A stretch of DNA of 64,000 nt, taken from positions 21,774 through 85,773 of the IMG/VR virus record IMGVR_UViG_3300042924_003416. The stretch is one strand, 5' to 3'. The translations under genes were made by a program, and so were the position numbers. Below, one piece after another: positions 3 through 52,757 of this stretch (positions are counted from its first letter, which is position 1; each line of letters starts with the position of its first letter). Source of the DNA: a virus. The notes beneath the pieces were generated by a model that saw nothing but the letters and a program-made list of their open reading frames with translations, had not been told where the DNA came from and searched no databases.

Positions 3-2570
3 AGTCCTACTGCAGTAAACATATCTAAAGGAAATAAAAGATATTTAGTAGCTGCTAGAGATTTACCTGCCGGTACTGAAATTACTACTAACTATAGATT
101 ACAACCTGAGTTAGAACAACCTGAAGACTTTATGCAAAAAGGAGGAATGACTCCTCAGAAAGATGGTTATAGAACTTATTCACCATTTAAAAATCTTCCT
201 TTTATTGATGTAGAAACAGACACTATTGATACAGACAATATAGTATATGATTTACAATTGAGGGCTAATAATGGAGTTACTAAAAATGTACAAAAAAATA
301 CAGGCTTACATAAAATTCCAGGAGCAACTGTTATAAGAGAAATTCCTATGGGTAGAAAAGGAGGATCTGCTCCTAAACTTCCTAAAAAGAAAAACTCTAA
401 AGGATACTCAAGAAGTCTTGAAGCAACAAATAGATTATTTGCAGAACATCCATTCTTTGCTCAATCAAAATCTAGAAAGAATAAAATATATGATCCTAAT
501 TCAAAGTACTTCCAATTTGGTGGTATGTTTACTGAAAAAGGAGCTAATGTATATTTTAATCCAACATACATGAATAACTTTACAGGTGGTACTAATTCAT
601 ATGAAAAAAATATGCTTGGTTCATACCGTACAGGTTTTTCTCCTGTTGTTGGTATAGAAGGTTCATTAAGTAAAAGTAGAAGAGCTGATGAAGAAAAGGG
701 AAGAGGTTGGTTATATAATGCATATGCCGGACTTAATCCTAATGCAATGAAAGAAGGTAACTATACTCCTTCTGCAGGTTTAAGTTTTGATTTTGAAAAT
801 TCACCACAAGATAGAGTCTTTAGACCTTTTGCTCAAATAGGTGCTGACTATAATCCTGATACTGGTCTTAATGCTGGAGCAACAACTGGTGCTAGATTTC
901 CTTTTACACCTTATGGAAATAAAAGAATTAAACCTGGATATGCAATAGGTCATTTAGATATATATGGTGGTATTAGAGGTGGTTATGGTAAAATGAAAGC
1001 TGATGGTGCAGGTCCTTCAGGAGGTTTAGCATATGGTGCAAGAGTTCATGGTAAATATATGCCTGAAAGAAAATCAGTTCTTGGTAAACTGATGGGTAAA
1101 GGTGCTTATTTTTATGGTGATGCAGGAATACAGTTTGATCCTCAAAAAGGTCAACTAAGTCAGAAAATGAAAGATTATACTATTCCTTCTGGAGCGGTTG
1201 ATTATTATGGTAATGCAGCAACAGCTAGTGGAAGTGATCAAGATTCAGGTCTTAAATTTGGTAATACTATTTATGCAAATGTTGGTGTCAAAAAAGAACT
1301 TGATGATATTAAGTTTAAAAAAGATGACAGAGCAAGAAAAATTCAAGAGATTGAAGATAATGAAAAAAGAGCATTTCAGGAAAATGAAATAAAACAAGTA
1401 ATAGAAAAACCTAAAAAAGAATGTCCTGAAGGAGAAGAAAGACATTGTGCTGATTGTCCTTGTGAACCAATAGAAAGAGTAAGTCATCCAAGATGGTTGC
1501 AAGAAGGTGGTGAGTATATTGAAACAGAACTTACTCCAGAAGAAATAGAACAGTATGCTAAAGGAGGGTATATCATAGAAGATATTTCTATACCTTCATT
1601 ACCTAAAGCTCAATTGGGTAAAATTATAAAAAGTACAAAGAATATAGTATTTCCACCAACTCCAGATCAAAAATTTCTTACTAATTATATATCAAATAAT
1701 TTTGGCCCTCATGTTACTTCTCAACATTCAGCAGATATTGCAAGAAGATTAGCAAGAGAACAATATCAACGTGCTGTACTAGATGCTCAACAGGCAGCAC
1801 TGTTTAATGCAAGTAATATAGATATATCTACACTACCTCAACAACGTGTTGCTGATTTACAAAATTTAGTTACACCAGCTATTCAAAGTAAAATAAATAA
1901 AGTTAACTTACATGAAGCAGAAGACTTATTAAAAACTTTAGATCCAAGTGAACTTGATAAATACATTGATTACAGACCATTTAGAATTTATACACCTTCA
2001 GGTAGTTTAGCACTTCATCAAAATACAGATAATTTAAAAGATAACTTATTTTCTTTTAATGTATTTATGAATAAACCTAGAGAAGCTGGATTAGCATTTA
2101 ATTATGCAAATAAGTTTTTTCCATATAAGAATCCATCAATTTTAGAAAAGAATAGTTTGAGTTTAGATTCATTTAACATGTTAGCTAACATGGGTCGTAG
2201 ACCAGAATGGGATATACAATTTGATGATATGATTGATATGAATGCTTTAGCTCGTCATAGTAAATTATTTGAAGGATTACCTTCTGTAGGTAGGATAGGT
2301 GCTGGTCATTTTGATAAAGCTACTGGTGAAGAGATGTTAAGAAGGTTAAATGCTATGATTGCTGAAAAAGGTTTTTCTGAAAAAGCAGACTGGCAATACA
2401 CTCCAATTTCAGGAGATAACTTAGGTATCCATAAATTTATGTTACCTAACTATAAAATAACTAGAAAATACAGTGAAGGTGGAGATTTTGAATATGAACT
2501 TGGAGATGAAGTAGATGAAACTACTATGCAAGAATTAGAAAAATTAGGTTATACATTTGAACAAATATAG
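3..2570 (+). CDS. 5'-truncated virion polyprotein-like protein: C-terminal part of a SET domain, beta-barrel-like segment, Cys-rich linker, repeated xxGG/LPKAQxG motifs
   Basis: The frame of the 132..2570 ORF is open back to position 3 (SPTAVNISKGNKRYLVAARDLPAGTEITTNY, matching the SET C-terminal motif). Motifs FMQKGG, GRKGG, FQFGG, LQEGG, LPKAQLG, YSEGG. Confidence 0.75.
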   Translation, partial: SPTAVNISKGNKRYLVAARDLPAGTEITTNYRLQPELEQPEDFMQKGGMTPQKDGYRTYSPFKNLPFIDVETDTIDTDNIVYDLQLRANNGVTKNVQKNTGLHKIPGATVIREIPMGRKGGSAPKLPKKKNSKGYSRSLEATNRLFAEHPFFAQSKSRKNKIYDPNSKYFQFGGMFTEKGANVYFNPTYMNNFTGGTNSYEKNMLGSYRTGFSPVVGIEGSLSKSRRADEEKGRGWLYNAYAGLNPNAMKEGNYTPSAGLSFDFENSPQDRVFRPFAQIGADYNPDTGLNAGATTGARFPFTPYGNKRIKPGYAIGHLDIYGGIRGGYGKMKADGAGPSGGLAYGARVHGKYMPERKSVLGKLMGKGAYFYGDAGIQFDPQKGQLSQKMKDYTIPSGAVDYYGNAATASGSDQDSGLKFGNTIYANVGVKKELDDIKFKKDDRARKIQEIEDNEKRAFQENEIKQVIEKPKKECPEGEERHCADCPCEPIERVSHPRWLQEGGEYIETELTPEEIEQYAKGGYIIEDISIPSLPKAQLGKIIKSTKNIVFPPTPDQKFLTNYISNNFGPHVTSQHSADIARRLAREQYQRAVLDAQQAALFNASNIDISTLPQQRVADLQNLVTPAIQSKINKVNLHEAEDLLKTLDPSELDKYIDYRPFRIYTPSGSLALHQNTDNLKDNLFSFNVFMNKPREAGLAFNYANKFFPYKNPSILEKNSLSLDSFNMLANMGRRPEWDIQFDDMIDMNALARHSKLFEGLPSVGRIGAGHFDKATGEEMLRRLNAMIAEKGFSEKADWQYTPISGDNLGIHKFMLPNYKITRKYSEGGDFEYELGDEVDETTMQELEKLGYTFEQI

Positions 2571-2572
2571 TC

Positions 2573-5500
2573 ATGGCTAAATATAGAATAACAAGCATTC
2601 CTGCTAATTTACCACAAGCTCAAGATGGAGGATCTTTTTGGAAAAAAAAATATAATGTTGCTAAGAGTAAAAAACTTAAAAGAAATAAAACAAATACTTC
2701 TAAAAGATCTGCAGGAAACTTTTCTAATGAAGTAGGAGAATCTATCTCACAAGACCTACCTATGGTAGAAGTCCAAGGTGTTGATCAACCTTCTTACTGG
2801 AATCAAATGTCAAGTGATGTTGTACAAGGTATAGAATGCCCTCCAGGAAAAGAAAACTTTGAAGGAAATTGTTTAACTGAAGATGAAATTCTTAGTATTC
2901 TAGATGCTAGAACTGCAGAGATGAAACAAAAGAATTTTGATAGACGTGTAGAACAAGGTTTTAAAAAATCAAATGTTTTTGCAGATTCAGAATATGCTTC
3001 AAAAATGTTAGGTCGTTATATTTCTGCTAGGAATCAACAAGAACAAGACTATGATAATTATGCAAATAAGTACTATGATACTTTTAAAAAATCTAAAAAA
3101 AGTGATAAAATACAACCGTTTAAAAAGTTTTCTGCAGAAGAACTAGATCAATTACAAGATGTAGTTGATCAAGAAGGTAATGTAGTTATTGATGAAACAA
3201 CAGGACAACCACTGCAACAAGCTAAAATTGATGCATTTAAAAATAACTTTTTAATTAATAAAACAAAAGATGGTTTTTATGAACTGTATCCAAAAGATAT
3301 TGTTAGAGATAGAATTTTACAAAGTGGTTTTAACGAAGAACAATTTAAAAATTTTTGGGGATTAGATCCAGAACAAGTAAAGGAACAGGTAGGTGATATG
3401 ATAGGTACGGCTAATGAAATCTATAATCAAAGATTACAACAACGTATTATTAAAACAGCCATTGATAAAAATATATCTGTTGAAGATGCAATTAAAACAA
3501 TACCTAAATCTGAAGGTACTCAAACTGGATTAACAAATAGATTTAAAAAATCTACTCAAAAAATAATTGATGACACTTTTGATATCTATACAAATAGTAT
3601 GTTAGAGTCTATGTTGTATGATCCTGATGTTGCAAAAAAAGATGAAGATGTATTTTATTCAGAAGATCCTAAAACAGCATGGGAAAATAAATATCATGCA
3701 GGTGATTTAAAATATATTTCTGACAAACAAAGAAAAGGTCAAAAAGCATATGATGAAGCAATTAAAAATTTTAGTAATATAGGTAGTAGTGGTGCATCAG
3801 ATGAATATTATCAAAATCAAGGTAGGTATGATGACAGGATGGCACAACAAAGATTAAAAAATCAAGGTGTACAAAAAGCAATAAATTTATCAAGAGCTGA
3901 ATCGGCAAGACAAGGAGCACAAGATAAAAAGTTTAATGATGCATTTGGTCAGTATTTAAGTAATCAAGGAACATCTTATCAAAAAGAATTATTAGGAAAA
4001 GCATTTGATAAACTTAGAGCTGACCCTAAAGCAAAAATAAATTTTTTAAGAGATATTGAAAAATATCCAGACTTGGTTATGGGGGATGTTTTTAATTTAA
4101 CAGATGATGAGTCTGGTAAAACATATTCTGATTTATATTCAGAACGTCTTAATGATAGCTATATGAATAGTTTAAAGGCAAGACAAAATACATTTAAAGA
4201 AGGTAGTTATAAACCTGAACTTACAACAGGTAATAAAATATTTGACTATCTTAGACATCCTTTTCATGCAGCATATTATGCAATGCACCCAACACAAGAT
4301 ATGCATGGTAATTGGAATATTGATTATGATACAAGACTAAAGCTTGAAAAAGAAAAAGGTATAAATTTAGGTACTATGGATAAAGTACAAGGATTTAATC
4401 CTATGTCAGTTTTAAATTTGACACCACTTCAAGCTCTTAATCCTTTTAAAATAGGTAGTAATTTAAGACAGGGATATGATAAAGGAAATTTTATAGGAGC
4501 ATTAGGTGATGAAATTGTTGATATTGGTACATCAGTTGGAGCTGCAAAAGGTTTTAATGCATTATCAGGAAGTGGTTTAGGATTAACAAAGGGAGCAGGA
4601 ACTTTAGTAAGTAGTATATTTAATCCCTTTAGTGATATAGGATATGCTTTAAAAGCTGGAAAAAATTTAGATAATGCAACTGATTATATTAAAAAAGGTG
4701 ATTATAAAAATGCAGCTTGGGAAGGTTTAGAAGGTGGATTAAATGCTATACCACTTATAGGCTTACCAAAGTATTTAAAAGGTTTTAATAGATTTAATGA
4801 TGCAACAAGTGGATTTAATTTTAATAGAACATTTAATAATGCAAATCAATTAAATTTTAATAGCCCTAACTTACTTGGAACACAACAAATACCTAAATAT
4901 AATATATTGAATAAAGATGGACAACTCATTCGTAATCAATATAAAAATGGAGGGTCTCTTCCTAAAGCACAATTAGGTAAAATAGTTAGTAGTTTAAAAT
5001 TATTGGAACCTGTAGAAGTATATGGTAAACAATTTTTAAGATCACATTATAATCCTTTATCTTATCCTGTTAAACTTGCTGGTTCAAAAGTAGCAGGTTT
5101 AAGTTCAGGTGCATTTAGACAACCTGGAGAAATTGCAAAAGCATTACTTGCAAAAGAAGGTGATTTAACATACAAAGGTCAAAATACAGTTATAGTAAGA
5201 CCTGGAAGTGAAATTGAAAAAATATATACAGAAGGTGGTAGAGATTTAGTAAAAAATTATATGTTAGGTCAGACAAAAGGATTGCAAGAATTAATGTATG
5301 ATTTTGAAAAAGATCCTGGACTTAACCAAGCAATAGATTATTATGGACCATTAAAAGCATATGAATTATATTCTAAAATACCACATGGTGAAAACTTAGG
5401 TATACAAGATTTTATGAAACAGGCTTCAGGTTTTAGTTTTAATAAAGATAAAGTTATTGATGATCTTATGAGTGGGTTTGATCAAAATCTTAATATATTT

Positions 5501-7018
5501 GATCAATCAAAAAATACTAGATTACTTTTTGATTTAAAAAGAGATTTGGGTGAAGAAGCAGGTAATGCAAAATATAGTGAAATTGCAAAAGATAATTTAA
5601 AATATTTGTTTGATCAGTATGGTAATGACGTTATACCTTTTCAAGCAAATGTAGATCCTATGCATACAAAAGATTTAATACTAAGAGGTAATCCCATAAT
5701 GCCGCTAGATGATATTGGAGGTCATATGGGATTTTTAAAAAAAGGTCCTGATGGTAATTATGATTTTACAACTAGAGATTTGTGGAGTTTTAGACCTAGT
5801 GCTTATGGTAAAAGATATGCTGGAGATAGTACTGCAAAAGCTTTATTTAAAGATGCTCAAGTTCAGTTGATGGATACTTTTGGTAAACCATTTATTCTAC
5901 ATCAAACTAATCCTATTAAATTTAAAGAAGGTGGTGATTTACCAAAAGCTAAGATGGGTTGGCCTCCTGGAGGTTTTAGATCCCTAAGAAAAATTCCAAC
6001 AGTATTTGGTAGAGAAGTTTACAGACCAAGCAGTACTATTTTTAACACAGGAATAAAAACAGGAAATATTCATGTTCCTAAAAAAATAGACTTTTTAAAA
6101 GAAACTGGACCAGAAATAGACGAACGTGTTAGAAGAAATTTAATATGGGATTTTGATGAGTATACTGGAGGAGATCCTGCTAACCTACCAGGAATATCAA
6201 GTTATATAGGTAGAGGTCTAGCATCTCCCACTGAATTAACAAAGTATTTAGGTGATTTTGATTTTAAACCTTTTTCAGATGGATGGCAAGTAAGAAATCA
6301 AATGATGAATGCATTTGATGGACCTCAATGGGCAGCAGGTAAAAATGATTTTTTTACTGAATCTGAATTAATAAACCTTGTTAATCAACAAAGTGAATGG
6401 CAAAAAGCAAGAAATTCATTTGATGATATGTATCCTGAAAATCCTGCTATGGGAATTATGAATGCATTTAGTGGGGATAACAGTAGAGAAGAGTTATTTA
6501 GTAATCTTTACCCTAATGCATCTATGCCAAATTTTAGAAGTAAGTTTACAACACCAGAACAAGAAGCTTTATTACAACAAAATTTACCTTGGCAATATTC
6601 AGTAAGAGATAAAGGTATGCTTAATAGTTGGAAATTAAATCCTTTTCTTGCTGATACACTTAATGATAAAATTTTACCTTCATTTAAAAGACTAACAAAC
6701 TTTAAAAAAGATTTAGCAGATGATAATCATATGGTTGGAGAATATAGAGGAATGTTAGGTGTAAAATATGAAGATTGGAAAAATGCATCACCAGAACAAA
6801 TTAGTAAATGGGCAAAAGAAATAAATAAAAAACTTTATAATAGAGATTTTAATCGTTATAAAAGTGATATAGAAAAACCATTTAAAGGAAGTGATGCATG
6901 GAATCAAATAACATCTCAACCAGGTTGGAAAAATAAAAATGGAGGTGTTGCTATGAAACTTACCAAAAAGGAAATAGACAAATATGTTCAAGGAGGATAC
7001 ATTGTAGAAGAAGAATAA
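2573..7018 (+). CDS. Large virion polyprotein-like protein (1481 aa) with at least three modules delimited by xxGG-LPKAxxG
   Basis: Long ORF starting 2 nt after the upstream stop. Motifs LPQAQDGG, YKNGGSLPKAQLG, FKEGGDLPKAKMG and C-terminal NKNGG...QGGYIVEEE. Confidence 0.7.
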   Translation: MAKYRITSIPANLPQAQDGGSFWKKKYNVAKSKKLKRNKTNTSKRSAGNFSNEVGESISQDLPMVEVQGVDQPSYWNQMSSDVVQGIECPPGKENFEGNCLTEDEILSILDARTAEMKQKNFDRRVEQGFKKSNVFADSEYASKMLGRYISARNQQEQDYDNYANKYYDTFKKSKKSDKIQPFKKFSAEELDQLQDVVDQEGNVVIDETTGQPLQQAKIDAFKNNFLINKTKDGFYELYPKDIVRDRILQSGFNEEQFKNFWGLDPEQVKEQVGDMIGTANEIYNQRLQQRIIKTAIDKNISVEDAIKTIPKSEGTQTGLTNRFKKSTQKIIDDTFDIYTNSMLESMLYDPDVAKKDEDVFYSEDPKTAWENKYHAGDLKYISDKQRKGQKAYDEAIKNFSNIGSSGASDEYYQNQGRYDDRMAQQRLKNQGVQKAINLSRAESARQGAQDKKFNDAFGQYLSNQGTSYQKELLGKAFDKLRADPKAKINFLRDIEKYPDLVMGDVFNLTDDESGKTYSDLYSERLNDSYMNSLKARQNTFKEGSYKPELTTGNKIFDYLRHPFHAAYYAMHPTQDMHGNWNIDYDTRLKLEKEKGINLGTMDKVQGFNPMSVLNLTPLQALNPFKIGSNLRQGYDKGNFIGALGDEIVDIGTSVGAAKGFNALSGSGLGLTKGAGTLVSSIFNPFSDIGYALKAGKNLDNATDYIKKGDYKNAAWEGLEGGLNAIPLIGLPKYLKGFNRFNDATSGFNFNRTFNNANQLNFNSPNLLGTQQIPKYNILNKDGQLIRNQYKNGGSLPKAQLGKIVSSLKLLEPVEVYGKQFLRSHYNPLSYPVKLAGSKVAGLSSGAFRQPGEIAKALLAKEGDLTYKGQNTVIVRPGSEIEKIYTEGGRDLVKNYMLGQTKGLQELMYDFEKDPGLNQAIDYYGPLKAYELYSKIPHGENLGIQDFMKQASGFSFNKDKVIDDLMSGFDQNLNIFDQSKNTRLLFDLKRDLGEEAGNAKYSEIAKDNLKYLFDQYGNDVIPFQANVDPMHTKDLILRGNPIMPLDDIGGHMGFLKKGPDGNYDFTTRDLWSFRPSAYGKRYAGDSTAKALFKDAQVQLMDTFGKPFILHQTNPIKFKEGGDLPKAKMGWPPGGFRSLRKIPTVFGREVYRPSSTIFNTGIKTGNIHVPKKIDFLKETGPEIDERVRRNLIWDFDEYTGGDPANLPGISSYIGRGLASPTELTKYLGDFDFKPFSDGWQVRNQMMNAFDGPQWAAGKNDFFTESELINLVNQQSEWQKARNSFDDMYPENPAMGIMNAFSGDNSREELFSNLYPNASMPNFRSKFTTPEQEALLQQNLPWQYSVRDKGMLNSWKLNPFLADTLNDKILPSFKRLTNFKKDLADDNHMVGEYRGMLGVKYEDWKNASPEQISKWAKEINKKLYNRDFNRYKSDIEKPFKGSDAWNQITSQPGWKNKNGGVAMKLTKKEIDKYVQGGYIVEEE

Positions 7019-7034
7019 ACTTTATAAGTTTATT
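7016..7034 (+). promoter_or_regulatory. Palindromic intergenic motif, copy 1 (candidate late promoter or operator)
   Basis: TAAACTTTATAAGTTTATT, 18/19 identical to 15607-15625; contains the inverted repeat TAAACTT-n3-AAGTTTA. Confidence 0.5.
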
Positions 7035-7075
7035 GATTAAATTAAAATTTAGTATATTAGTATATAACACATCTT

Positions 7076-10000
7076 ATGAAAAAATCAGTAAGAATAAGAA
7101 AAGCTCTTCCAGGTGAAAAACCTGGTTACTATAATAAGACTGCAAAGTTTTTACAAAAAGCTCAAATGGGTATGCAAGTTGGTTCTCCAAGTATGGATCC
7201 TCAAAGATTAAATAAGGTATATGAGAATGTATATATATCATTAAAACAGTCTACTCCTCCTGATGTAGTTTATAATGAACTTGTTACAGAATATGCTTTA
7301 GATCAGGATACTTCATTAAGTATTCTTAGAGCTGCTTTAGGTCAGTTATCTCAAGAAGGTTATTTTGATGAATCTGAATTAGAGGGTGAGAGTACATCTC
7401 AAAGTGAAGAAGAAACTCAAGAAGAAGATACTTCTGCCCAAGAAGAACAACAAGCATCAGATGATGCAGAACAACAACAACTTGCTGAGTCATCTGAAGG
7501 TTATTATGATGATGAAGAAGCATTAAACAATGACACATCCCATCTTGAAGATGAACAGTATGAGCAACAAGAAGCATTTAGATATGGTGGGTACTGGCAA
7601 GATGGTGGAGAAAGTGAAGAAGTATATGATGAATCAGAGTATCAAGATGAAGAAAATTATTCTGATGAATCTGATACACGTGAAAATGTAGTTGATCAAT
7701 ATAATTATCCTGGACAATCAACAATGGAGAAACCTTTCTCTATAGAAGATTTAATGGCTATTACTCCAGGGATGCAAGGACAAGAAGCATTTCCAGATAT
7801 ATCAGCTTATTTAGGTGATTATCAACCTGTAGCAGATTCATATCAACCAGAGAATTATTTACCTCAAGCACAGTATGGTACTATTATTAAAGCTGCTAAA
7901 GCTGCTGCAGATGCACTTAAAGTAGACCCTCCTATCTTAAGACAACCGTTTACTAACTTAAGTACTTTACGTAAGTACATACCTATTTCTACTCTTACAG
8001 GAGAAGCAGTAACTAAATTACCATTAATTGGATCTAAACTTGCACCTAAATTAGCAACTACTTTTACTCAAAATAGAGATGAGTTGTTTAAAGTAATGCA
8101 GGGTCAGTCCCCTAAGACAGGTATATTTAGTCAAACTGGTAGTTATGCTGGTGGAGCTGATGGTAGTTTATCTGCTGATAGATTATTGTTGTATCAAGAT
8201 GATGTATTTAATATTATTGATCAAATAGAAAATGGAGGACGTTCTGCTTTTCAATTTATGGATATTGATCCTGTTGCAAAAAATGATGGATTAATAAGTG
8301 GATTGTATCCATTAGATTCTAAAATTGTAAGTGGTGTTGATGATAATGGTTTTAAATTCTTTGAATTAAATAAAACATTTACTCCAGGTGAAAAATTACC
8401 ATTTGGTACTTTACCTTCTAAAGCTAAAGAAGTTACATTTAAAAATAGATTCTATTATAAGACTGATGAGGCTGGTCAAGTACAAGTATTTGATTCTTTA
8501 GGTAATCCTTTATCTCAAGGTGCTCAAACTAAATTTGAAGTTGCAAGACCTTTTGGAACAACTGTTTCAAGAACACTTACTGATCCAATACTAAGAAATT
8601 CTAATACACCATTTCCTAGTTTTAGAACAGGATACGAAGGTGGAAGACTTACTGAAACTATGGGTGAAAAACCTATGACTTTTGCAGACATGGGTGTAAG
8701 AGGTAAGATTGGTAGAGGATTAGAAACATTTGGTTTTACTGGTTTAAATCTTCCTTTTAGAACAGGAGCTGATGCTATTCAAAAAGTTGACTATCCAGTA
8801 TTTGGATATACTAATAAAGCTTTAGGACCTAATGTAATAGATCCTGCTACTGAAGGATCTTATGCAAAAGATATTGCAAATGCAATGAACTATAAATATA
8901 GAGTTGGCCGTAATACATTACTTGGTCTTGGTGCTCTAGGTGCATTAGGTTATACAGGATATAATGCTTATAATAAATGTCAATGTGAAGATCCTCTTGC
9001 TCCAAACTATCAAATGAAAGATAAGTATGATAACTGTCCTTGTGGTACTGATGTAGGTAGTAGGAGAACTTTAGATCCAACAGCTAATCCTTTTACTGAA
9101 CAAGTTGATCCAAGATCTTTAACTATGCCTGATAGTATGCAATTTCTTATTCAAAAAGGAATTTATCCAAGTGCAGAAAATTATTACAGGTATCAAGATA
9201 GTAATGTTGTAAATCCAAATATGGAGAACAGTATTCCTGCAGATGATTTTGCATATGGTGGTGCATTACCAAGAGCACAAAAAGGTCGTATTATTAAAGG
9301 TGTTGCAAAAACAATGAAAACTTTAAAAGCACAACCTACACCAAAAGGAGTAACCATACCAAAAAATATGTCTGACATTCCAATACCTAAATATAATGTA
9401 AAAGGTATGGATGCAAGAAAAGCATTTGAAGATGATTTAAGACTTGATCAAGATTTTATAGATTTTCAAAATAATGATCAATTTTTACAGTACAGTCCAG
9501 GTTTTCAAACTAACCAACAACGCTTAGATTCTGAACCTCTTCGTGATTTCTTTAAATATGTAACTGGATATTCTGATCCTCTTGAAATAAAACAATTTTT
9601 AAATACCCCTGGTATAACAAAATATAATAAATTTGGTGTCCCTTTTGCAACAAGAGATTTTAAAATGATGCAAACACCTTTTGAAGATCCTTTTAATCTT
9701 TTAGATGATGGTTTTAATATACCACCTTATCAAAAAGGAGGTATTTCAAAAAATCAGTTTATTAAAAAGTTTACTTCAATGTATCAAGAAGGTGGGGAAA
9801 AAGATCCAAAAGATCCTTCACTAGGTAAAGGAAAAAGGTTTGATACTCTTACTAATGATGTAGAAGCTAGAAAAGATATATTTAAAAGTAAACTTAAAAA
9901 TAATTCTAATGTAGCTCTTACAGAAGAGATATATAAAAATGCTCAGAGTAATCCTCAGATTCTAAGCATGTTAATGCAAGATGGTCAAAAAGAAAATCTT

Positions 10001-12127
10001 GCAGAAAATGATAATATGCAAACAGCACAATATGGTGGTGTTAAAGAAGATAGTATACCAAATTGGTATAGAGGTTATCAATCTATGATGACTCCTGCAC
10101 AATATAAAAAACTGTACAAACAGTTACGTAGAATGATACCTAAAGGTGTAGATATTTCAAAAGCTAATATTGCATCTAACTTTTTTGATAGGGGAACAAC
10201 TTTACCACCATATGGTCATGTTATGACATATCCTCAATATGATGATATGATGAATAGAATGACTATGCCAATGATGATAGATCCAAATACTTTTGGATTT
10301 AGAGGTACTAGTATTCCTTCACAACTTCAAGCAGAAGATGCAGTAAATAAAAATAATCAAAAAGGTACACAATTTTTACCTGAACTATCTCCTGACTTTA
10401 TTGATTCACCATTAACACCTGAATTAAAAGGTCAAGATTTTTTACAGTTTTATGAAGACTATCCAACTCAACTTCAACAAAAAGATTTTTTTCCATTTGT
10501 TGATTATCCTGCAGTTGCTGAACATGGTGGGTTTGTAGATACTGATGCTGAAGAACCTTTATATAAGTTTATATATGGTGGTGATGAACCAGAATATTAT
10601 GAACAGTATGGTTTACCAGAAGCACAGTACGGTGCTGATGTTTCTGGTATTTATGACTATATTGATGGTCTTCAGAAGAATGCTAAGAATAATGATCCTG
10701 ATCCTAATCCTAAAGAAAATGAAGATAAGAAAGATGATCAAGATATAATTGAATGTGGACCAGGAACAGTATGGAGTAAAACATATCAATCTTGTATTCC
10801 TAGATCTAAAGTAACATATAATCAAAGACAAGTAAGAAGAAGTCCTGGATTCTTTAATACTATGTTACCTTGGAATGCACCATTTGGTTATGCCGGTTCA
10901 TGGACAAAACAGATGTCTTTACCATATTATTTAGGAAGTAAAGATCCTTATAAAGGTCAATTAACAGGAGCTCCTGTTGCTAGATACGTAACTAAAAAAG
11001 GTATTTTAGGTAGACCTAAAAAATGGATAGACATTTACAATACTGGCAGCGGTTCTGGTAGCATAAATCCTATAGAGTTAGAAAAACTGATGGAACAAAA
11101 CAGAAGAGGTTCCAATAGAAACATGAATAAAAATCAGTTTAATAATCCTTCAGAAGATAGAGTAAGTGGTAGAGATCAGTTAGAAAGTGATCTTAAAAAG
11201 AGAATGGGTTATTCAGATGAAGAGTGGGAAAGCACTAGTGAAAAAGATAAGAGAAGAGAGATAAGAGCTGAGAGATATAACCAAGGTAAAGGTTTAAGAT
11301 ATAAGACTAATGAAGCTTATGAAAATCTTAAAGATTCTGCATTAGGTAATACTGCTAAATTTTATGGAAACATAGGTAAAAAAGTAAAAAACTTTCTTAC
11401 TAGAAAAGATTATGGTGGTGCTGGTGGATGGGATCCTTTTGCATTAGGTAGTGGATTAAGTACTGGTGTTGGTCAAAACATGTCTGCATTTGCACCTTAT
11501 TCACAACAACAACAATTTGAGAATAGTTTGTTTGGTACTAAAGGTCCTTCTGCAGCTCCTAAACCACAACAGAATCCTCTTGCTAATGTTAATTTTGGTA
11601 CGGGCTCTTATGCTGAGACTGCAAATACTGGACATACATTAGGTGCACAAGGTCAAGAAATTATTCCACAAAAAGAACCAGAAGCACCTGAAAATGAATA
11701 TGTAGGTGTTGAAAACAAAAGAAAAGATATGCAAAATGTAGATCCTGAAGCAGGAGTAAATGTTACTAATGCAGCTATCAGAGGTGGTTTAGGAGTACTA
11801 AGTAGAATGCAGAATGCAGGAAGAGAAAGAAATTTCTTATTAGATACTGTTGATCCAATGAACTTATATGCATCTGCAAATGAAACTGACAGAGGTGACT
11901 GGCAAGACTTTGGTTCTAAATCTGGTATGTTAAGATATGATCAAGAAGGACAAGACAGAAGTAGTAGAGCTACCTATGGTAATTATGCTAATGCAGCATA
12001 TGGTGGATACATGCAAGAGGGTGGATTCTATGAAGAACCATACTTTGAAGAAGACGAAGAAGTATATATGACTCCAGATGAATTAGAACAATTTTTACAA
12101 GCCGGAGGACAAGTTGAATATTTATAA
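7076..12127 (+). CDS. Large virion polyprotein-like protein (1683 aa) with acidic region and many YGG/QxGG motifs
   Basis: Long ORF with more than 10 copies of xxGG/AQxG motifs, Cys-rich mini-motifs and an E/D-rich tract. Confidence 0.7.
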   Translation: MKKSVRIRKALPGEKPGYYNKTAKFLQKAQMGMQVGSPSMDPQRLNKVYENVYISLKQSTPPDVVYNELVTEYALDQDTSLSILRAALGQLSQEGYFDESELEGESTSQSEEETQEEDTSAQEEQQASDDAEQQQLAESSEGYYDDEEALNNDTSHLEDEQYEQQEAFRYGGYWQDGGESEEVYDESEYQDEENYSDESDTRENVVDQYNYPGQSTMEKPFSIEDLMAITPGMQGQEAFPDISAYLGDYQPVADSYQPENYLPQAQYGTIIKAAKAAADALKVDPPILRQPFTNLSTLRKYIPISTLTGEAVTKLPLIGSKLAPKLATTFTQNRDELFKVMQGQSPKTGIFSQTGSYAGGADGSLSADRLLLYQDDVFNIIDQIENGGRSAFQFMDIDPVAKNDGLISGLYPLDSKIVSGVDDNGFKFFELNKTFTPGEKLPFGTLPSKAKEVTFKNRFYYKTDEAGQVQVFDSLGNPLSQGAQTKFEVARPFGTTVSRTLTDPILRNSNTPFPSFRTGYEGGRLTETMGEKPMTFADMGVRGKIGRGLETFGFTGLNLPFRTGADAIQKVDYPVFGYTNKALGPNVIDPATEGSYAKDIANAMNYKYRVGRNTLLGLGALGALGYTGYNAYNKCQCEDPLAPNYQMKDKYDNCPCGTDVGSRRTLDPTANPFTEQVDPRSLTMPDSMQFLIQKGIYPSAENYYRYQDSNVVNPNMENSIPADDFAYGGALPRAQKGRIIKGVAKTMKTLKAQPTPKGVTIPKNMSDIPIPKYNVKGMDARKAFEDDLRLDQDFIDFQNNDQFLQYSPGFQTNQQRLDSEPLRDFFKYVTGYSDPLEIKQFLNTPGITKYNKFGVPFATRDFKMMQTPFEDPFNLLDDGFNIPPYQKGGISKNQFIKKFTSMYQEGGEKDPKDPSLGKGKRFDTLTNDVEARKDIFKSKLKNNSNVALTEEIYKNAQSNPQILSMLMQDGQKENLAENDNMQTAQYGGVKEDSIPNWYRGYQSMMTPAQYKKLYKQLRRMIPKGVDISKANIASNFFDRGTTLPPYGHVMTYPQYDDMMNRMTMPMMIDPNTFGFRGTSIPSQLQAEDAVNKNNQKGTQFLPELSPDFIDSPLTPELKGQDFLQFYEDYPTQLQQKDFFPFVDYPAVAEHGGFVDTDAEEPLYKFIYGGDEPEYYEQYGLPEAQYGADVSGIYDYIDGLQKNAKNNDPDPNPKENEDKKDDQDIIECGPGTVWSKTYQSCIPRSKVTYNQRQVRRSPGFFNTMLPWNAPFGYAGSWTKQMSLPYYLGSKDPYKGQLTGAPVARYVTKKGILGRPKKWIDIYNTGSGSGSINPIELEKLMEQNRRGSNRNMNKNQFNNPSEDRVSGRDQLESDLKKRMGYSDEEWESTSEKDKRREIRAERYNQGKGLRYKTNEAYENLKDSALGNTAKFYGNIGKKVKNFLTRKDYGGAGGWDPFALGSGLSTGVGQNMSAFAPYSQQQQFENSLFGTKGPSAAPKPQQNPLANVNFGTGSYAETANTGHTLGAQGQEIIPQKEPEAPENEYVGVENKRKDMQNVDPEAGVNVTNAAIRGGLGVLSRMQNAGRERNFLLDTVDPMNLYASANETDRGDWQDFGSKSGMLRYDQEGQDRSSRATYGNYANAAYGGYMQEGGFYEEPYFEEDEEVYMTPDELEQFLQAGGQVEYL

Positions 12128-12135
12128 CAATACCA

Positions 12136-15100
12136 ATGATAAAAGTTAGAATTAAAAAAGTACCTAAAGCAAGAACTGGATACCAAGTTCAAGGAGCATT
12201 AGTTAATGATGTACCTGCAATGGGAGGTATGGACTACAATGCTTATATAGGTAAAGAAAAACTTAAGGAAAGTAAGTACATCACCGCTGTCCCTAGAGAA
12301 GAAGCAAATCTTGAAGCAGAGGGAGGTGAAACAGTATATGGAGACATCAATGGTGATGGAATGCCAGAACATAAAATCATCAAAGGACCAAGACATGCTC
12401 AAGGTGGAGTTCCTCTAAGTCTTCCTGAAGATACTTTTATCTTTAGTGATACCAGAGCTATGAGGATAAAAGATCCTGAGATACTTACTATGTTTGGTAA
12501 AGGTGGTGCAAATAAATCTTTTACACCTGCAGAACTTGCTAAACAATATGATGTACAGAAATATAGAAAACTTTTAGAAGATCCTGATACAGATGCAATA
12601 GAAAGAAAGACTGCTGAGTTGATGATCAAAAAGTATGTTATAAAACTTGGTTGTCTTGCTCTTACACAAGAGTCTATGAAAGGATTCCCTCAAGGAATTC
12701 CTGCCGTAGCAAAACCTTGTATGGAAGCTAAAGGTCTTACAGAACAAGATATATTACCAAGTAAAGAAATACAAGGTCTAAATGAACAGTTGAAGCAACA
12801 AATGCAACAACAAGAAGGAGGAGATGAAAATCAAGTTCAAGAGGCTGTTGACATGAATGAAGGAAATCCTGTTGCTGAACCTACACAACAAGAACCTCAA
12901 GGTGAAATGCCTCCATCTCCAGAAGAAATGATGATGTATGGTGGTCATAGAAGATTAAGAAGAGGTCAAATGGGAATGGAACAAGTTCCACAAGAAATGA
13001 TGGAGCCTCAACAAGAACAAGGAGGAGGAGATGAGATGATGGAAATTGTTCAAGAAGTTCAATCTGCTTTAGAAAGAGGTGCTGACCCTTCTGAAGTTGT
13101 TATGAATTTATTAGAGAATAATGTTCCTCCACAAGCAATAGTAGAAATCTTTGCTCAATTGGGTGCAGATCCACAACAAGCTGCTGGTCTTGTAGAACAA
13201 GTAATAAGTCAAGCTCAAGGTGGTGGTCAAGAACAAATGATGCAAGAACAACCTATGTCAGAAGAAGAAGCAATGATGATGCAACAACAACAGATGCAAC
13301 AACAAGCTCCTCCAATGGCAATGTATGGGATGACTATGGGTGGTTATGATATGCCTTTTTTTGACATACCTCAAGCTGAATATGGAATGTCTATGGGTTC
13401 TGGTATGTCTCAAAACTATCAGGGAAGACCTAAAAGAATTCCTGGATCAGGTCCTATGTTTCCATTAACAAGAGCAGACAATGGTATTGTGGTTGATGGT
13501 AGTAATATGACAGAAGAACAACTACAAAGAGCAATTTGGAATGAACAACAAAAAGCACTTAAAGATTGGAAAGATAAAAATCCCGGTAAAGATCCAAAAA
13601 CATCTGGTTATAAAGAACCACAAATTAATGTAAAACGTAAAGATGCATCAGGTAAAGTTATAACTTCAAAGTTAAAATCATCAGGATTTATTATTCCTGA
13701 AGGTAAAGATATTAGTGATTTAAAAGGTTTTCCTGATACACCAAGAGGGAGAACTGTTGCTGCACAGTATATGTTAATTGAAGATAACTTAAAAAATCCT
13801 ATAGTTCAAGCTGAGATTATTAAAAATACTAAAGAAGCAATTGAAAATCCTGATGCTTGGACAGGTAAAGGTGGTAAAAGAAATGCAAATAACACATGGT
13901 CTAAAAAATATGGATCTTTACCAGATGACGAAGAAATTATAAAACAAGCATTAAATCATCAAAAAAGAAATTTAATGTTTGAAGCTAATGAAGTAGATCC
14001 TCAATTATTTACAGATGTTGGTGATGCTTTAGATAAAGCAAGTACAGTTGTATCTGAAAAATATATAAATCCTAAAACAGGAAAACCCTATACTTTAAAA
14101 GAAGCCCAATCTGAATTAAAAAGATTAACTGATAAGGGATACACAAGTATAGCAAAGATGTCAGAGAAACTTAAAGTTCCTTTAGATCCTTTAGGAAAAG
14201 ATCGAGTTTTACAACAAGCTACAATGCATTCATATGCAAAGTCTTATCAAAATTTTCAAAAAGGTGACTATGATTCTAATCCAGATGCTAAATATGCTAT
14301 GGATAATTTTTTAGGTAATGTAAGTTTAGTACATGCCGGAGCAAATGATGAAACCTCAATGGGTGCTTTATATGGTACAATTGGTAATAAAATATCACCT
14401 CTTGATGATAAATATAATTATGCTAATAATAACTGGTATGATTTTGCAAATAGTTCAAAAGGAGATAGTAGATTTACAACTTATGGTGATACAAGTGCTG
14501 GTCATAGATATATGGTTGGTAAAAGAAATTATGAATTTGAAGATTTACCACCCGAAGTAGATCCAAATTGTCAATGTGCAGATCCTAATAAACCTAACTA
14601 TGGTCAGTATAAAGATGCTAATGGAAATTGTAGTTGTACTCCTCCAGATGTTCCAAAAGATAAACCAAAGAATTGCCCATGTAGAAAGTCTGATGGAACA
14701 GAAATAAACATGACTCCTGATAAAGATGGTAACTGTCCTCCTTGTACAGAAGAACAAACTATTGAAACTCCTGCACCTCCTGCTGAATGGTGGTTACAAG
14801 ATACTATTAAAACTACTGGTGCATTTGGAGACTTAATGGGTATTAAAAAATATATGCCGTGGGCACCAGGAGTTGAACTTGGAACACCAAGACCAACTTT
14901 TATGGATCCTACAAGAGAACTTGCTGCTAATGCAGAACAAGCAAACATCCAAACCCAAGGTATGGCACAGTTTGCAGGACCTCAAGCATTGTCTGCAAGA
15001 TCATCTGGTATACAAGGTCAAGCTGCTAAGAATGCTGCTGATGTACTTGCTAAGTATAATAATGCTAATGTTAATGTTGCAAATCAATTTGAAATGAAAG

Positions 15101-15609
15101 CAAATGACATTAGAAATCAAGAGAGTATGTTAAAACAAGCAACTGCTCAAAGAGTCTATGATCAGAATACAGTTGCTAACCAACAGTTTGATAATGCTAA
15201 GTTGGCAATGAGAAATCAGTTAAGAAACTACTATACTAATGCAATTACTAACAGATGGAAAACAGATGCTCTTAATCAAATGTTCCCTAACTATGCTGTA
15301 TCTGCTGGAGTAGGTGGAAGAATGGATTATAGACCTTCAGAAAGAACTCCTAACCCAACACAGACTACAGGTAAAACTAGAGAAGAGTGGTTCATGTGGT
15401 GTAAAAACAATGGAGATCCTAATCCTTCTGCATGTGCTCAAAGAATGATGGATAATAAAGGAAGTTCAAGTAGTAGCAGTGATGGGGCAGATGCAAACAT
15501 GATTAAAACTATGTATGGTCAATATGGTGGGGCTATGTATCCAGATGATGATTTTTATGAAGATGGAGGATATGTACATGTTAATTCATGGCTACCATTT
15601 ATAATGTAA
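12136..15609 (+). CDS. Virion/cargo protein (1157 aa) with EAEGGE...GPRHAQGG domain, Met/Gln-rich linker and Cys-rich repeats
   Basis: Long ORF; NLEAEGGETV...GPRHAQGGVP...FIFSD motif that I recall from crAss-like structural modules; Gln/Asn/Ala-rich C-terminal helix. Confidence 0.65.
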   Translation: MIKVRIKKVPKARTGYQVQGALVNDVPAMGGMDYNAYIGKEKLKESKYITAVPREEANLEAEGGETVYGDINGDGMPEHKIIKGPRHAQGGVPLSLPEDTFIFSDTRAMRIKDPEILTMFGKGGANKSFTPAELAKQYDVQKYRKLLEDPDTDAIERKTAELMIKKYVIKLGCLALTQESMKGFPQGIPAVAKPCMEAKGLTEQDILPSKEIQGLNEQLKQQMQQQEGGDENQVQEAVDMNEGNPVAEPTQQEPQGEMPPSPEEMMMYGGHRRLRRGQMGMEQVPQEMMEPQQEQGGGDEMMEIVQEVQSALERGADPSEVVMNLLENNVPPQAIVEIFAQLGADPQQAAGLVEQVISQAQGGGQEQMMQEQPMSEEEAMMMQQQQMQQQAPPMAMYGMTMGGYDMPFFDIPQAEYGMSMGSGMSQNYQGRPKRIPGSGPMFPLTRADNGIVVDGSNMTEEQLQRAIWNEQQKALKDWKDKNPGKDPKTSGYKEPQINVKRKDASGKVITSKLKSSGFIIPEGKDISDLKGFPDTPRGRTVAAQYMLIEDNLKNPIVQAEIIKNTKEAIENPDAWTGKGGKRNANNTWSKKYGSLPDDEEIIKQALNHQKRNLMFEANEVDPQLFTDVGDALDKASTVVSEKYINPKTGKPYTLKEAQSELKRLTDKGYTSIAKMSEKLKVPLDPLGKDRVLQQATMHSYAKSYQNFQKGDYDSNPDAKYAMDNFLGNVSLVHAGANDETSMGALYGTIGNKISPLDDKYNYANNNWYDFANSSKGDSRFTTYGDTSAGHRYMVGKRNYEFEDLPPEVDPNCQCADPNKPNYGQYKDANGNCSCTPPDVPKDKPKNCPCRKSDGTEINMTPDKDGNCPPCTEEQTIETPAPPAEWWLQDTIKTTGAFGDLMGIKKYMPWAPGVELGTPRPTFMDPTRELAANAEQANIQTQGMAQFAGPQALSARSSGIQGQAAKNAADVLAKYNNANVNVANQFEMKANDIRNQESMLKQATAQRVYDQNTVANQQFDNAKLAMRNQLRNYYTNAITNRWKTDALNQMFPNYAVSAGVGGRMDYRPSERTPNPTQTTGKTREEWFMWCKNNGDPNPSACAQRMMDNKGSSSSSSDGADANMIKTMYGQYGGAMYPDDDFYEDGGYVHVNSWLPFIM

Positions 15610-51576: not shown

Positions 51577-52746
51577 TTATTTTACAGCCATCTTCACCAC
51601 GTCCTGATTCATCATCAGTTGTGAGAACTTAACTTTGTTACCGTTGACAATCTCTTTAACCATATAATATCTAAGGTCATCAGTAAATGCATCACAGTCA
51701 GTAGTAAGTTTAGCTATCCTGTCAATGATTGGTTTACCTATTGAACCTTTGTCAGCCAAAGCAAGAGAATAGTTAATTACCCTAGTTGCAATAACACTAG
51801 AGATATCAGCACGGAAGTCATCATCCTTCCCTACTGCATTAGTAAGAGAGTTCATAACATACTGCTCATCTTTAGTTAGGATGTCAACTGGACTGATAAT
51901 TCTATCTAACTTGTTATTAATAAACATAGTAAACATTGAACTAAAGTCTACACCTACAGAACCCTCACCAATCATTTGGATTAGTGGTAAACTATCTTCA
52001 AACTTAGGTACAGAACTAATAGCATTAAAGAAAGTAGTAATAGCTCTTGGATTAACTCTTTGAGTTACCAATTCTGGGTGCATCAACATGAAGTTAATAC
52101 ATCTACCATCTATGTTTGCTTTCTCTGCCCACTTAGCCCATACATCAGAATCATACTTTAACTCAACAGAGATAAATCTAGTCTTCTGAGCAACATCTAG
52201 ACTAGTTACATTATAGTCACCATTGTCTGGATTAGTAGTCAAGATAACATGCCAGTTCTTTGGTAGTTTCCAAGATACATATTCTTGTCTATCTAGAATC
52301 TCCATAGTTGCTTGCATAAATCTTGCATCAGCACGAGTATAGTCATCCAAGATTAGGAAACCACCCTCACCTTTACCTTGAATCCACTCAGGAGCAGCAT
52401 GAGACATTCTCTTTCCAACAACTTTGTACCCTTTTGCACTAGCTGCATTTATCTGAGATTCATTAATCCAGGTCTTCTTACCTTCAGCATTTTGTATTTC
52501 AAATTCTTTTACAGGAAAACCTACTAAGTCACCTAATTCTTCTAACTGAGATAAATTAAGCTTAACTACATCCATTTTTAATTCTTTACCCAACTGCATG
52601 ATTGCAGAAGTTTTACCCAAACCAGCATCACCCTCAATGTTTACAGCTACAGGTACTTTACCTTCAGCTTGGATATGTTGGTTATTACTAACCATATGTT
52701 TAATAAAATCTTTTAACTCGTTTACGTTTAATTGTACTTGATTCAT
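51577..52746 (-). CDS. MoxR-like AAA+ ATPase
   Basis: Walker A GDAGLGKT, Walker B LILDD, sensor TTNP, arginine finger KTRF. Confidence 0.85.
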   Translation of the reverse strand: MNQVQLNVNELKDFIKHMVSNNQHIQAEGKVPVAVNIEGDAGLGKTSAIMQLGKELKMDVVKLNLSQLEELGDLVGFPVKEFEIQNAEGKKTWINESQINAASAKGYKVVGKRMSHAAPEWIQGKGEGGFLILDDYTRADARFMQATMEILDRQEYVSWKLPKNWHVILTTNPDNGDYNVTSLDVAQKTRFISVELKYDSDVWAKWAEKANIDGRCINFMLMHPELVTQRVNPRAITTFFNAISSVPKFEDSLPLIQMIGEGSVGVDFSSMFTMFINNKLDRIISPVDILTKDEQYVMNSLTNAVGKDDDFRADISSVIATRVINYSLALADKGSIGKPIIDRIAKLTTDCDAFTDDLRYYMVKEIVNGNKVKFSQLMMNQDVVKMAVK

Positions 52747-52757
52747 AACACTAATTT

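Follow-up and report, generated by a model that had tools for sequence, protein, structure and literature searches.

The window analyzed here is a 64,000-nucleotide stretch of virus DNA that comprises bases 21774-85773 of a single 85,773-bp contig, IMG/VR record IMGVR_UViG_3300042924_003416; judged by its sequence, the contig is an incomplete crAss-like phage (~71% completeness by IMG/VR-CheckV). At the 5' end of the window lie four adjacent open reading frames (ORFs 1-4; Table 1), whose protein products are punctuated by two types of short peptides, [FYMA]xxGG and LPxAQxG, called seam peptides below. In an earlier note, made from the letters of this DNA, these peptides were proposed to be either sites at which a phage protease cuts the four proteins into many cargo proteins or copies of a capsid-loading signal. 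Here, we describe the distribution and conservation of the seam peptides and the modules that they separate, and weigh the possible readings of their function.

The genomic context of ORFs 1-4 is that of the Crassvirales virion module, in which the R1/R2 ring and muzzle genes precede the cargo and giant RNA-polymerase genes. Immediately 5' of the window, Pfam matches above cut-off were obtained for CrAss_Ring_2 (1.7e-22), CrAss_Ring_1 (6.2e-10), and crAss_MUZ, the muzzle protein (1.2e-29), and a weak one for Ring_3_4 (0.0012). On the 3' side, ORFs 1-4 are followed by a 1065-aa ORF, by giant ORFs of 2490, 3384, and 2444 aa, and then, on the opposite strand, by a replication module encoding PolA, a primase, a DnaB-like helicase, and an exonuclease. 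This order matches crAss001, in which the muzzle gene is followed by the genes for the cargo proteins C1 (gp45; PF25725) and C2 (gp46; PF25712) and then by the RNA-polymerase-associated giants (Bayfield et al. 2023, PMC10172136). Flanked by ring and muzzle genes on one side and by giants on the other, ORFs 1-4 thus occupy the cargo-protein slot, and their products are probably virion-packed, injected cargo proteins; the cargo of crAss001 is packed in the virion and is believed to leave through the tail in a partly unfolded state (PMC10172136). The slot holds four genes here, in contrast to one or two in crAss001.

The true start of ORF1 is located 286 nt before the window, at genome position 21488. 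The four-gene series recurs in locus L003 and in 13 related IMG/VR loci, wherever a locus reaches it. In the related loci, the lengths of the products range from 458 to 1810 aa for ORF1, from 863 to 2084 aa for ORF2, from 1256 to 1609 aa for ORF3, and from 1003 to 1152 aa for ORF4; the middles of the genes vary in length and their ends are nearly constant. A tblastn search of 50,697 GenBank phage records with ORF3, ORF4, and ORF5 gave no match.

Table 1. Coordinates, within the window, of the cargo genes, seams, cassettes, and candidate metal sites discussed in the text
Feature	Position	Strand	Remarks
ORF1, predicted cargo protein	3..2570	+	951 aa at full length; start upstream of the window
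ORF2, predicted cargo protein	2573..7018	+	1481 aa; 5 [FYMA]xxGG, 3 LPxAQxG; ends conserved in homologues
ORF3, predicted cargo protein	7076..12127	+	1683 aa; 10 [FYMA]xxGG, 3 LPxAQxG
ORF4, predicted cargo protein, conserved core	12136..15609	+	1157 aa
Complete (fused) junction module inside ORF1	1506..1628	+	GG, strand, helix TPEEIEQY, GG-YIIED, then IPSLPKAQLG
Split junction ORF1/ORF2	2508..2629	+	acidic C tail (...ELEKLGYTFEQI), stop, basic N head (MAKYRITSIP..LPQAQDG)
Composite GG-x-LPKAQxG seams in ORF2	4940-4978, 5921-5959	+	
Split junction ORF2/ORF3	6959..7171	+	C tail LTKKEIDKYVQGGYIVEEE, stop, 57-nt gap, N head MKKSVRIRK...KAQMG
Optional cassette A of ORF3 (aa 721-880)	9236..9715	+	between FAYGG-ALPRAQKG and YQKGG
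Optional cassette B of ORF3 (aa 981-1140)	10016..10495	+	between AQYGG and AEHGG/FIYGG
Split junction ORF3/ORF4	12056..12195	+	acidic C tail ...MTPDELEQFLQAGGQVEYL, stop, basic N head MIKVRIKKVP-KARTGYQVQG
Q/E/M-rich predicted disordered linkers of ORF4, carrying motifs	12814-13026, 13219-13476	+	
HEAWH (HExxH) in ORF7 (26340-36494)	28848..28862	+	aa 837; candidate zincin-type site, Gly-rich strand pattern before it; conserved in G004
HEFSH (HExxH) in ORF8 (36496-43830)	38485..38499	+	aa 664; second candidate zincin-type site; conserved in G004

Seam peptides and the modules that they separate

All 25 example peptides named in the earlier note were found in place (for instance, YKNGG at 4940, FKEGG at 5921, FRYGG at 7577, LPQAQYG at 7859, FAYGG at 9248, and AAYGG at 11993). 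The original patterns match 25 [FYMA]xxGG and eight [LI]PxA[QKE]xG peptides in the part of ORFs 1-4 that lies in the window. In the full-length proteins (5273 aa), we found 28 peptides of the form [FYWMA]xxGG against a mean of 7.9 in residue-shuffled sequences, and eight of the form [LIV]PxA[QKE]xG against 0.05 expected; none of 2000 shuffles reached either count, and the motif frequency thus exceeds the compositional expectation. The other 39 ORFs, with 21,358 aa, contain 11 and one such peptides, respectively. The Gly-Gly motif is about 4-fold more frequent in ORFs 1-4 than in shuffled sequence and about 10-fold more frequent than in the rest of the proteome. The giant proteins are not enriched, as had been noted before, and they are not depleted either (ORFs 5-8 hold seven motifs vs 5.4 expected); the structural proteins (two vs 4.6) and the replication proteins (two vs 3.3) are likewise neither enriched nor significantly depleted. 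The strict pattern also catches a few structural Gly-Gly pairs inside folded domains (such as FGKGG and AGVGG in ORF4), and it misses true seam copies such as GRKGG and LQEGG in ORF1.

The enrichment extends to homologous proteins. An at least 3-fold excess over composition was observed in 100 of 107 ORF3 homologues, 114 of 119 ORF1 homologues, and 105 of 150 representatives of the ORF4 family, which comprises 1835 representative clusters at E<=0.001. Seam-peptide cargo occurs in a large clade of uncultured crAss-like phages. A sequence logo built from 1098 instances in 264 diverse proteins has the core [Y/K/M]-[Y/F/M]-[Q/K/A/R]-x-G-G-[Y/E/S/F]-[I/T/S], set in flanks rich in proline, glycine, and acidic residues; proline is depleted at positions -4, P4, and P1', its frequency at P1' being 0.028 vs a background of 0.062, and tyrosine and phenylalanine are favored at P1'.

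The motifs are conserved in position as well as in number. ORF3 has 107 homologues besides itself at E<=0.001, all of them metagenomic, in which the motifs recur in the same order. In an alignment of 32 diverse homologues with 35-60% identity to ORF3, the Gly-Gly pairs of nine motifs are invariant; the invariant positions include 171-172, 888-889, 906-907, 1151-1152, 1168-1169, 1643-1644, 1649-1650, and 1677-1678, plus A1183 and G1186 of LPEAQYG. The two ends of ORF3 are its best-conserved blocks (column identity 0.93 for the N-terminal block and 0.9-1.0 for the C-terminal one). As a separate observation, clusters of cysteines (CxC...CxC) lie near seams at window positions 1422-1466 (ORF1 aa 570-584), 8978-9043 (ORF3 aa 635-656), and ~14569-14745 (ORF4 aa 812-870); the four cysteines of ORF3 are nearly invariant in the 32 homologues, and the clusters could be small zinc knuckles or disulfide knots.

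The seam peptides are not confined to ORFs 1-4. Four small, very basic proteins of 114, 170, 178, and 185 aa, whose genes precede the window (genome 1380-3847) and are flanked by a 339-aa structural ORF and a ring-3/4-like gene, contain seven motifs in 647 aa, among them the peptides KKYQKGG, KMQKGG (twice), and LKYQKGG, along with N-terminal LVKAQKG and KKAQDG. One of these proteins matches Pfam DUF6321 at 3.7e-20. The density of motifs in these proteins, the many copies per cargo protein, and the aromatic-rich cores in Pro/Gly/acidic flanks would suit multivalent stickers, that is, linker peptides and small basic proteins that bind each other or a repeated site in the capsid interior, on the portal, or on DNA. 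All cargo would then be condensed into one body, loaded before the DNA, and dissolved on ejection, and the cargo of crAss001 is indeed stored in a discrete zone of the capsid and tail (PMC10172136). We consider this role quite improbable, since the motifs are conserved in position at module seams and not merely in number, and since the small basic proteins are not evident in the complete relative G004.

Where the seam peptides lie relative to folded domains was analyzed in AlphaFold2 models of ORF1 (50-row alignment, mean predicted local distance difference test score [pLDDT] of 63) and ORF4 (71 rows, mean pLDDT of 75.9). The ORF1 protein consists, in order, of an N-terminal leader, a SET methyltransferase module, a small beta module, a beta-barrel-like module, a junction module, an alpha/beta C-domain, and a C-terminal tail, of which residues 47-133, ~275-530, and 724-920 are modeled as confident domains. 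All five strict motifs of ORF1 and its LP motif, together with GRKGG and LQEGG, fall in segments with pLDDT below 50, which make up 31% of the residues. In the ORF4 model, a folded N-terminal domain (aa 40-225) and a folded central region are followed by a long hairpin of helices (aa 883-1051) and by a C-terminal tail that is disordered and contains GQYGG and YEDGG; three of the five strict motifs of ORF4 and its LP motif are in low-confidence linkers (22% of residues). In the two models together, 8 of 10 strict motifs and both LP motifs are located at pLDDT below 50, between folded domains. The ORF4 peptides FGKGG and AGVGG, which the model places inside folded domains, are probably not seam motifs, and four Gly-Gly pairs inside the modeled barrel-like domain of ORF1 are structural. 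The Gly-Gly and LPxAQxG peptides are thus short linear motifs in predicted disordered linkers between exchangeable cargo modules.

Among the modules of ORF1, residues 47-133 have the predicted fold of a SET-domain lysine methyltransferase: Pfam SET (PF00856) scores 23.9 bits against a cut-off of 22.4, and the top Foldseek match is the chlorovirus vSET 3kma_A (E 1.5e-4, TMt 0.66, 105 columns), with numerous further SET domains ranking below it. For the barrel-like domain, Foldseek gave only a weak match, to an outer-membrane secretin (E 8.7e-4, TMt 0.32). Beyond SET, Pfam and PHROGs yielded nothing useful on ORFs 1-5. The ORF4 model has no Foldseek match in the PDB at E<=0.001, and a wide fold search (VIA) with the whole-chain model returned only coiled-coil-like matches to residues 883-1051 (Z<=8.4) and no protease fold. 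Sequence searches of the PDB with profiles of ORF3 and ORF4 and with single sequences of ORF4 and ORF2 gave nothing significant, and the ESM Atlas gave no usable match for ORF3 residues 200-720.

The earlier note had described the motifs as bracketing unrelated segments, which is what we observe, and had named module boundaries unrelated to the motifs in homologues as evidence to the contrary; in the homologues, both breakpoints and optional cassettes fall at motifs. Breakpoints were defined as the ends of BLASTP segments in comparisons of ORF1 with 119 homologues and of ORF3 with 107, and grouped into clusters of at least five internal endpoints. In ORF1, 6 of 11 clusters are within 12 aa of a strict motif (0.14 at random; 3 of 5000 random placements reach this), and in ORF3, 9 of 18 (0.18 at random; 9 of 5000). 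The four largest ORF3 clusters are within 7 aa of a motif, and two more big ORF1 clusters, of 79 and 83 endpoints, coincide with GRKGG and LQEGG, the copies missed by the strict pattern. When all small clusters are weighted equally, there is no excess at motifs (0.21 vs 0.15 in ORF1; 0.20 vs 0.19 in ORF3); thus, the signal resides in the recurrent breakpoints.

Two optional cassettes of ORF3 exemplify this pattern. Cassette A is present in only ~10% of diverse homologues (occupancy 0.03-0.23); the 56 breakpoint endpoints clustered at aa 734 coincide with a motif (distance 0 aa), and the 85 clustered at aa 881 lie 7 aa from one. Cassette B has an occupancy of 0.20-0.50 in diverse homologues; its cluster of 58 endpoints at aa 987 likewise coincides with a motif (0 aa), and that of 47 at aa 1148 lies at a distance of 3 aa. 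The homologues of ORF1 are mosaics of SET, GH24 lysozyme, SLT, Amidase_2, and PG_binding_1 cassettes (according to precomputed Pfam labels and a scan of seven proteins), and groups of motifs lie between the cassettes.

The seam peptides are therefore enriched, positionally conserved, and coincident with points of module gain, loss, or swap. A motif without any function of its own would be either a by-product of Gly-rich linkers or a scar of cassette-shuffling recombination. The linkers are indeed rich in glycine, proline, and acidic residues, and scars would also coincide with breakpoints; however, no shuffle reached the observed counts, the Gly-Gly and P5 residues stay invariant at 35-60% overall identity, and the termini are the best-conserved parts of the proteins. 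At the DNA level, moreover, the motif fixes only GGN GGN, which we infer to be too little for homologous recombination. This explanation is already disfavored, and we regard it as very improbable indeed.

Junction modules and end tags at the gene boundaries

In its fullest form, a seam is a junction module of 41-44 residues that consists of (i) a Gly-Gly pair, (ii) a strand, (iii) a helix, LTxEEIxxY, (iv) GG-YIVE, and (v) LPxAQxG. A hidden Markov model (HMM) built from 52 distinct instances, with the consensus KEQEGG-YIELELTPEEIEEYAKGG-YIVEDISVPELNKAQKGG, matches an internal segment of ORF1 (aa 598-638, E 4e-23) as well as the ORF2 C terminus (E 4.5e-8). In G004, there are two internal matches in the ORF1 homologue and one at the C-terminal end of the ORF2 homologue. 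Junction modules separate the SET, lysozyme, SLT, and Amidase_2 cassettes in homologues, and each of the three gene boundaries between ORF1 and ORF4 splits a junction module (Table 1).

The pieces on the two sides of these boundaries, termed end tags below, are near-constant in the related loci. The C-terminal tails end in ...LGYTFEKI, ...GGYIVEE, and ...FLAAGGQVEYL, and the N-terminal heads follow the patterns MAKYRITSIP..LPxAQxG, MKKxVRIRKALPGETPGYYNKTAKFLKKAxMG, and MIKVRIKKLPxARTGYQVQG. At the ORF1/ORF2 boundary, the same termini were found in L003 and in every one of the 13 related loci that extends this far. The median charges of tail and head in nine genomes are -1/+3 at ORF1/ORF2, -2/+4 at ORF2/ORF3, and -4/+6 at ORF3/ORF4, compared with -2/-2 at ORF4/ORF5.

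Natural gene fusions show when the tags are present. The N-head tag ([KR]VRIKK type) was found in 52 of 118 separately encoded ORF4 homologues vs none of 14 natural ORF3-ORF4 fusions. These 14 fusions lack both tags, and their two parts are joined via a plain ...YGG-x5-7-GG-(P)KxKTGxQV... linker. In two proteins of the ORF4 family, P0284 and P0292, the basic head tag occurs twice in tandem at the N terminus (RRVRIKKYP...RKVRIKKMP), which suggests that the head tag is a self-contained unit. A candidate family for the tags, DUF7210 (PF23843), was rejected: it gave a weak match to the C-terminal tag of one homologue and nothing meaningful in the studied genomes.

The seams as connectors or as cleavage sites

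From these sequence patterns, we tentatively favor the reading that the seams are an uncut connector or loading tag in a cassette system, the most probable of the readings considered here. In such a system, the seams would be the constant connector parts, and cutting would not be required. Where modules are fused, the connector would be covalent; where genes are split, each break would carry an acidic C-terminal tail (...E-L-x-x-F/Y-x-x-G-G-x-V-E) and a basic N-terminal head (M-x-K-V-R-I-K-K-x-P ... A-Q-x-G), and these tails and heads might re-join the pieces head to tail or present each of them to the same loading site. On this view, the products of ORFs 1-4 would form a single ordered chain, hinged at the Gly-Gly pairs, that is first loaded into the particle and afterwards threaded out through the tail.

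This reading is favored because the tags are found only where the chain is broken, exactly at the three internal boundaries and with complementary charge. It is also favored by conservation that extends far beyond a cleavage site, by the failure to find a known protease, and by the many copies in the small basic proteins, in which up to four motifs occur in 178 aa and cutting would leave only tiny peptides.

Several observations weigh against the connector reading. The fused junction of ORF1 is modeled as unfolded (pLDDT 27-42), a helix at 608-615 being the sole predicted element. The regular expression for the N head matches only 44% of the split forms. A basic N terminus (+1 to +4) is found in ORF1 as well, and the charge pattern is therefore not boundary-specific; the end tags, nearly invariant in 9-14 genomes, are too conserved for a covariation test. 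The remaining points are those on which the rival reading builds: the invariant Gly-Gly with its conserved P5 and P4 residues also resembles a protease subsite pattern, motifs flank nearly every cassette, often in tandem, which a polyprotein needs and a mere tether does not, and the co-packaged giant proteins contain conserved HExxH sites.

If the seams were protease sites, the cargo proteins would be polyproteins, cleaved behind their Gly-Gly pairs and, in N-terminal leaders, behind AQxG. Cleavage would take place in the capsid or following injection, and the SET domain, the wall-degrading enzymes, the barrel module, and other cassettes would be freed for different places. The enzyme would have to be an unrecognized fold or a zincin-like HExxH domain of ORF7 or ORF8. 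As judged from the same sequence patterns, this reading is a strong rival, although somewhat less likely than not. It accounts well for motifs that lie in disordered linkers on both sides of nearly every folded cassette, for the P5 aromatic residue or methionine, the P4 glutamine or lysine, and the proline-poor P1' around the invariant Gly-Gly, for the common tandem motifs, and for chains that combine cassettes probably bound for different destinations. The N-terminal leaders of five virion proteins end in AQxG, which resembles the targeting and propeptide logic of T4 and giant phages (PMC10052503). The conservation in G004 of the HExxH sites of ORF7 and ORF8 also counts in its favor, as do two published statements: polyvalent phage proteins have been suggested to be processed by embedded MPTase (zincin-like) peptidases (Iyer et al. 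2017, PMC5512222), and the gp65 orthologues are described as carrying a zincin-like protease domain, with a possible role in polymerase activation or peptidoglycan digestion (phi14:2 preprint).

The protease postulated in the earlier note was, however, not found. We searched six-frame translations of the contig and of four relatives (one 100% and one 96% complete) for seven Pfam protease families; C39 (PF03412), MPTase-PolyVal (PF18818), S78 (PF04586), C48 (PF02902), S77 (PF03420), ClpP, and C5 (PF00770) were each matched in none of the five records, whereas control genomes responded, and divergent members may escape the first-look filter used. Pfam scans of 45 ORFs of the contig did not reveal a protease either, ORF4 has no recognizable protease fold, and no Pfam peptidase family was detected in ORF7 or in ORF8, which has a LysM domain (Pfam 1.2e-5). 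HExxH also occurs in a 408-aa protein of the replication module, where it is conserved in G004, and in a 135-aa ORF; it is not present in ORFs 1-4. To our knowledge, the known Gly-Gly-specific proteases are cysteine proteases, not zincins.

Cutting is further disfavored by the size of the conserved unit, since 41-44 aa are more than a cleavage site needs, and by the end tags, which are added only in split genes, so that physical linkage seems to matter. Other virion proteins do not avoid the motif, although the expected counts are low and uninformative, and the words protease, proteoly-, and cleav- (and also scaffold) are absent from the available text of the crAss001 structure report (PMC10172136). 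Of the two functions offered in the earlier note, a loading or docking signal fits the end tags at least as well as cutting. The connector and protease readings are compatible and could be combined, with linkage for loading and cutting afterwards. A complete seam code of this type, in which the Gly-Gly peptide at each module boundary would be cut by an unrecognized virion-borne protease, matched tags would chain the split polyproteins, and loading, ejection order, and effector release would all be written in motifs of ~8-40 residues, seems rather unlikely.

Comparison with known systems, significance, and other genes of the contig

The closest system by gene position is the cargo of crAss001, to which we found no demonstrable homology. 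Its gp45 (L004:11988-14516) has a few similar peptides, FDTGG at 17, FAEGG at 260, and FAYGG at 559, the latter two of which lie just after the segments 214-245 and 425-552 resolved by cryo-electron microscopy (PMC10172136). The available text of that report describes no seam motif, junction module, or end tags. Pfam CARG1 and CARGO2 do not match ORFs 1-5 at E<=0.01. In six-frame searches, CARG1 (PF25725) was not found in record G000 and gave one sub-threshold match in G003, within a giant ORF, and CARGO2 (PF25712) was found in none of the five records at E<=10; as positive controls, CARG1 detected gp45 at 2.3e-66 and phi14:2 g070 at 2.8e-10. An alignment of the ORF4 profile with the CARG1 domain of gp45 by hhalign had a probability of 6.5% over 31 columns. 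Homology of ORF4 or ORF2 to gp45 had been suspected because of an EGG...H...FSD pattern in common, which phi14:2 g070 has as well; with BLASTP E-values of at least 0.075 and nothing in local HMM searches, it remains a lead. Protein g070 of phi14:2 (L026:10360-12141) has a CARG1 domain but little motif enrichment.

Polyvalent proteins are likewise mosaics in which unrelated effector domains are combined in one polypeptide and delivered with the DNA (Iyer, Burroughs, Anand, de Souza, Aravind 2017, PMC5512222). Their defining feature, at least two unrelated effector domains in a late or virion gene, is found here: ORF1 combines the SET, barrel-like, and alpha/beta modules, and its homologues add GH24 lysozyme, SLT, Amidase_2, and PG_binding_1. 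The available text of the polyvalent-protein study does not contain the word "linker" or describe a seam motif (PMC5512222). In contrast to polyvalent proteins, the constant part of the cargo described here is a short peptide plus a junction module, and the breaks between genes carry matching end tags; the polyvalent MPTase-PolyVal family is undetectable here.

The consensus of the T4/phiKZ prohead proteases ends in Glu. The motif of ORFs 1-4, unlike that of T4/phiKZ, ends in Gly-Gly and lies between modules along the whole chain. The likeness is that T4/phiKZ-like processing, exemplified by SPN3US gp245, also relies on one short motif common to many packaged or ejected proteins (PMC10052503). 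In those phages, N-terminal leaders end in the motif, several copies are possible per propeptide, the cut has been proven by mass spectrometry, and the protease is known (PMC10052503), whereas no S77 or S78 member was found here. Only a scaffold-like ORF, assigned by position and size, is located between the portal and capsid genes of G004.

Adenain and LXGG sites have a hydrophobic residue at P4. In the seam peptides, the hydrophobic residue is at P5, although precursor cutting after Gly-Gly by adenain, ASFV pS273R, and Ulp1-like enzymes of clan CE would otherwise resemble the pattern here. The clan CE families PF00770 (C5) and PF02902 (C48) have no match in the five records at E<=1, in a type of search that a divergent fold may escape. 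The C39 double-glycine leader system is represented by no C39 peptidase in these records; we take the junction helix LTxEEIxxYxxGG to resemble the double-glycine leader consensus, shifted by one residue, and regard this as a lead only. A sortase-like LPXTG signal, a prepilin-type leader, GlyGly-CTERM, and transglutaminase Gln sites were rejected on pattern, as their spacing differs, there is no transmembrane segment, and the Gln is not invariant.

Modular cargo proteins and polyvalent proteins are known kinds; in the literature searched, which lay outside subscription journals and supplements, neither the seam peptide nor the junction module nor the logic of the end tags was found to be described. 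The Crassvirales belong to the most abundant phages known, yet it is not understood how they select, load, order, and release several megadaltons of cargo (PMC10172136). The seam peptide, junction module, and end tags, present in hundreds to thousands of protein clusters, offer concrete, mutable handles on this question. The seams also mark where nature swaps injected enzymes such as SET methyltransferases, lysozymes, and amidases, and are in this respect relevant to studies of host takeover and payloads. Cleavage at these sites would mean a protease specificity new to phage biology and probably also a new enzyme; without cleavage, the tags would represent a new kind of non-covalent chain assembly for ejection proteins. 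A seam code that includes cutting, if true, would be the first case among tailed phages of cargo that is processed and delivered in polyprotein style, and would offer a natural platform on which injected payloads can be exchanged.

Several other genes of the contig were recorded. A ferritin-like protein of the Dps/rubrerythrin type is encoded within the virion gene block (genome 4552-5166; Pfam Ferritin 7.2e-25). A radical SAM protein resembling spore photoproduct lyase (window 63208-63981, minus strand; Pfam SPL 3e-19) is cut by the end of the window, and a SegE-like GIY-YIG homing endonuclease (window 55095-55520, minus strand; Pfam 4.5e-21) lies amid the replication genes. At window positions 51577-53984 on the minus strand, a gene pair encodes an AAA ATPase (PHROG 1297, 389 aa) and a 408-aa protein labeled "HNH endonuclease" (PHROG 1314). 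The latter contains a metallopeptidase-like HELLHIAFGH, conserved in G004 too, and we assume that the pair may represent a MoxR/VWA-type system.

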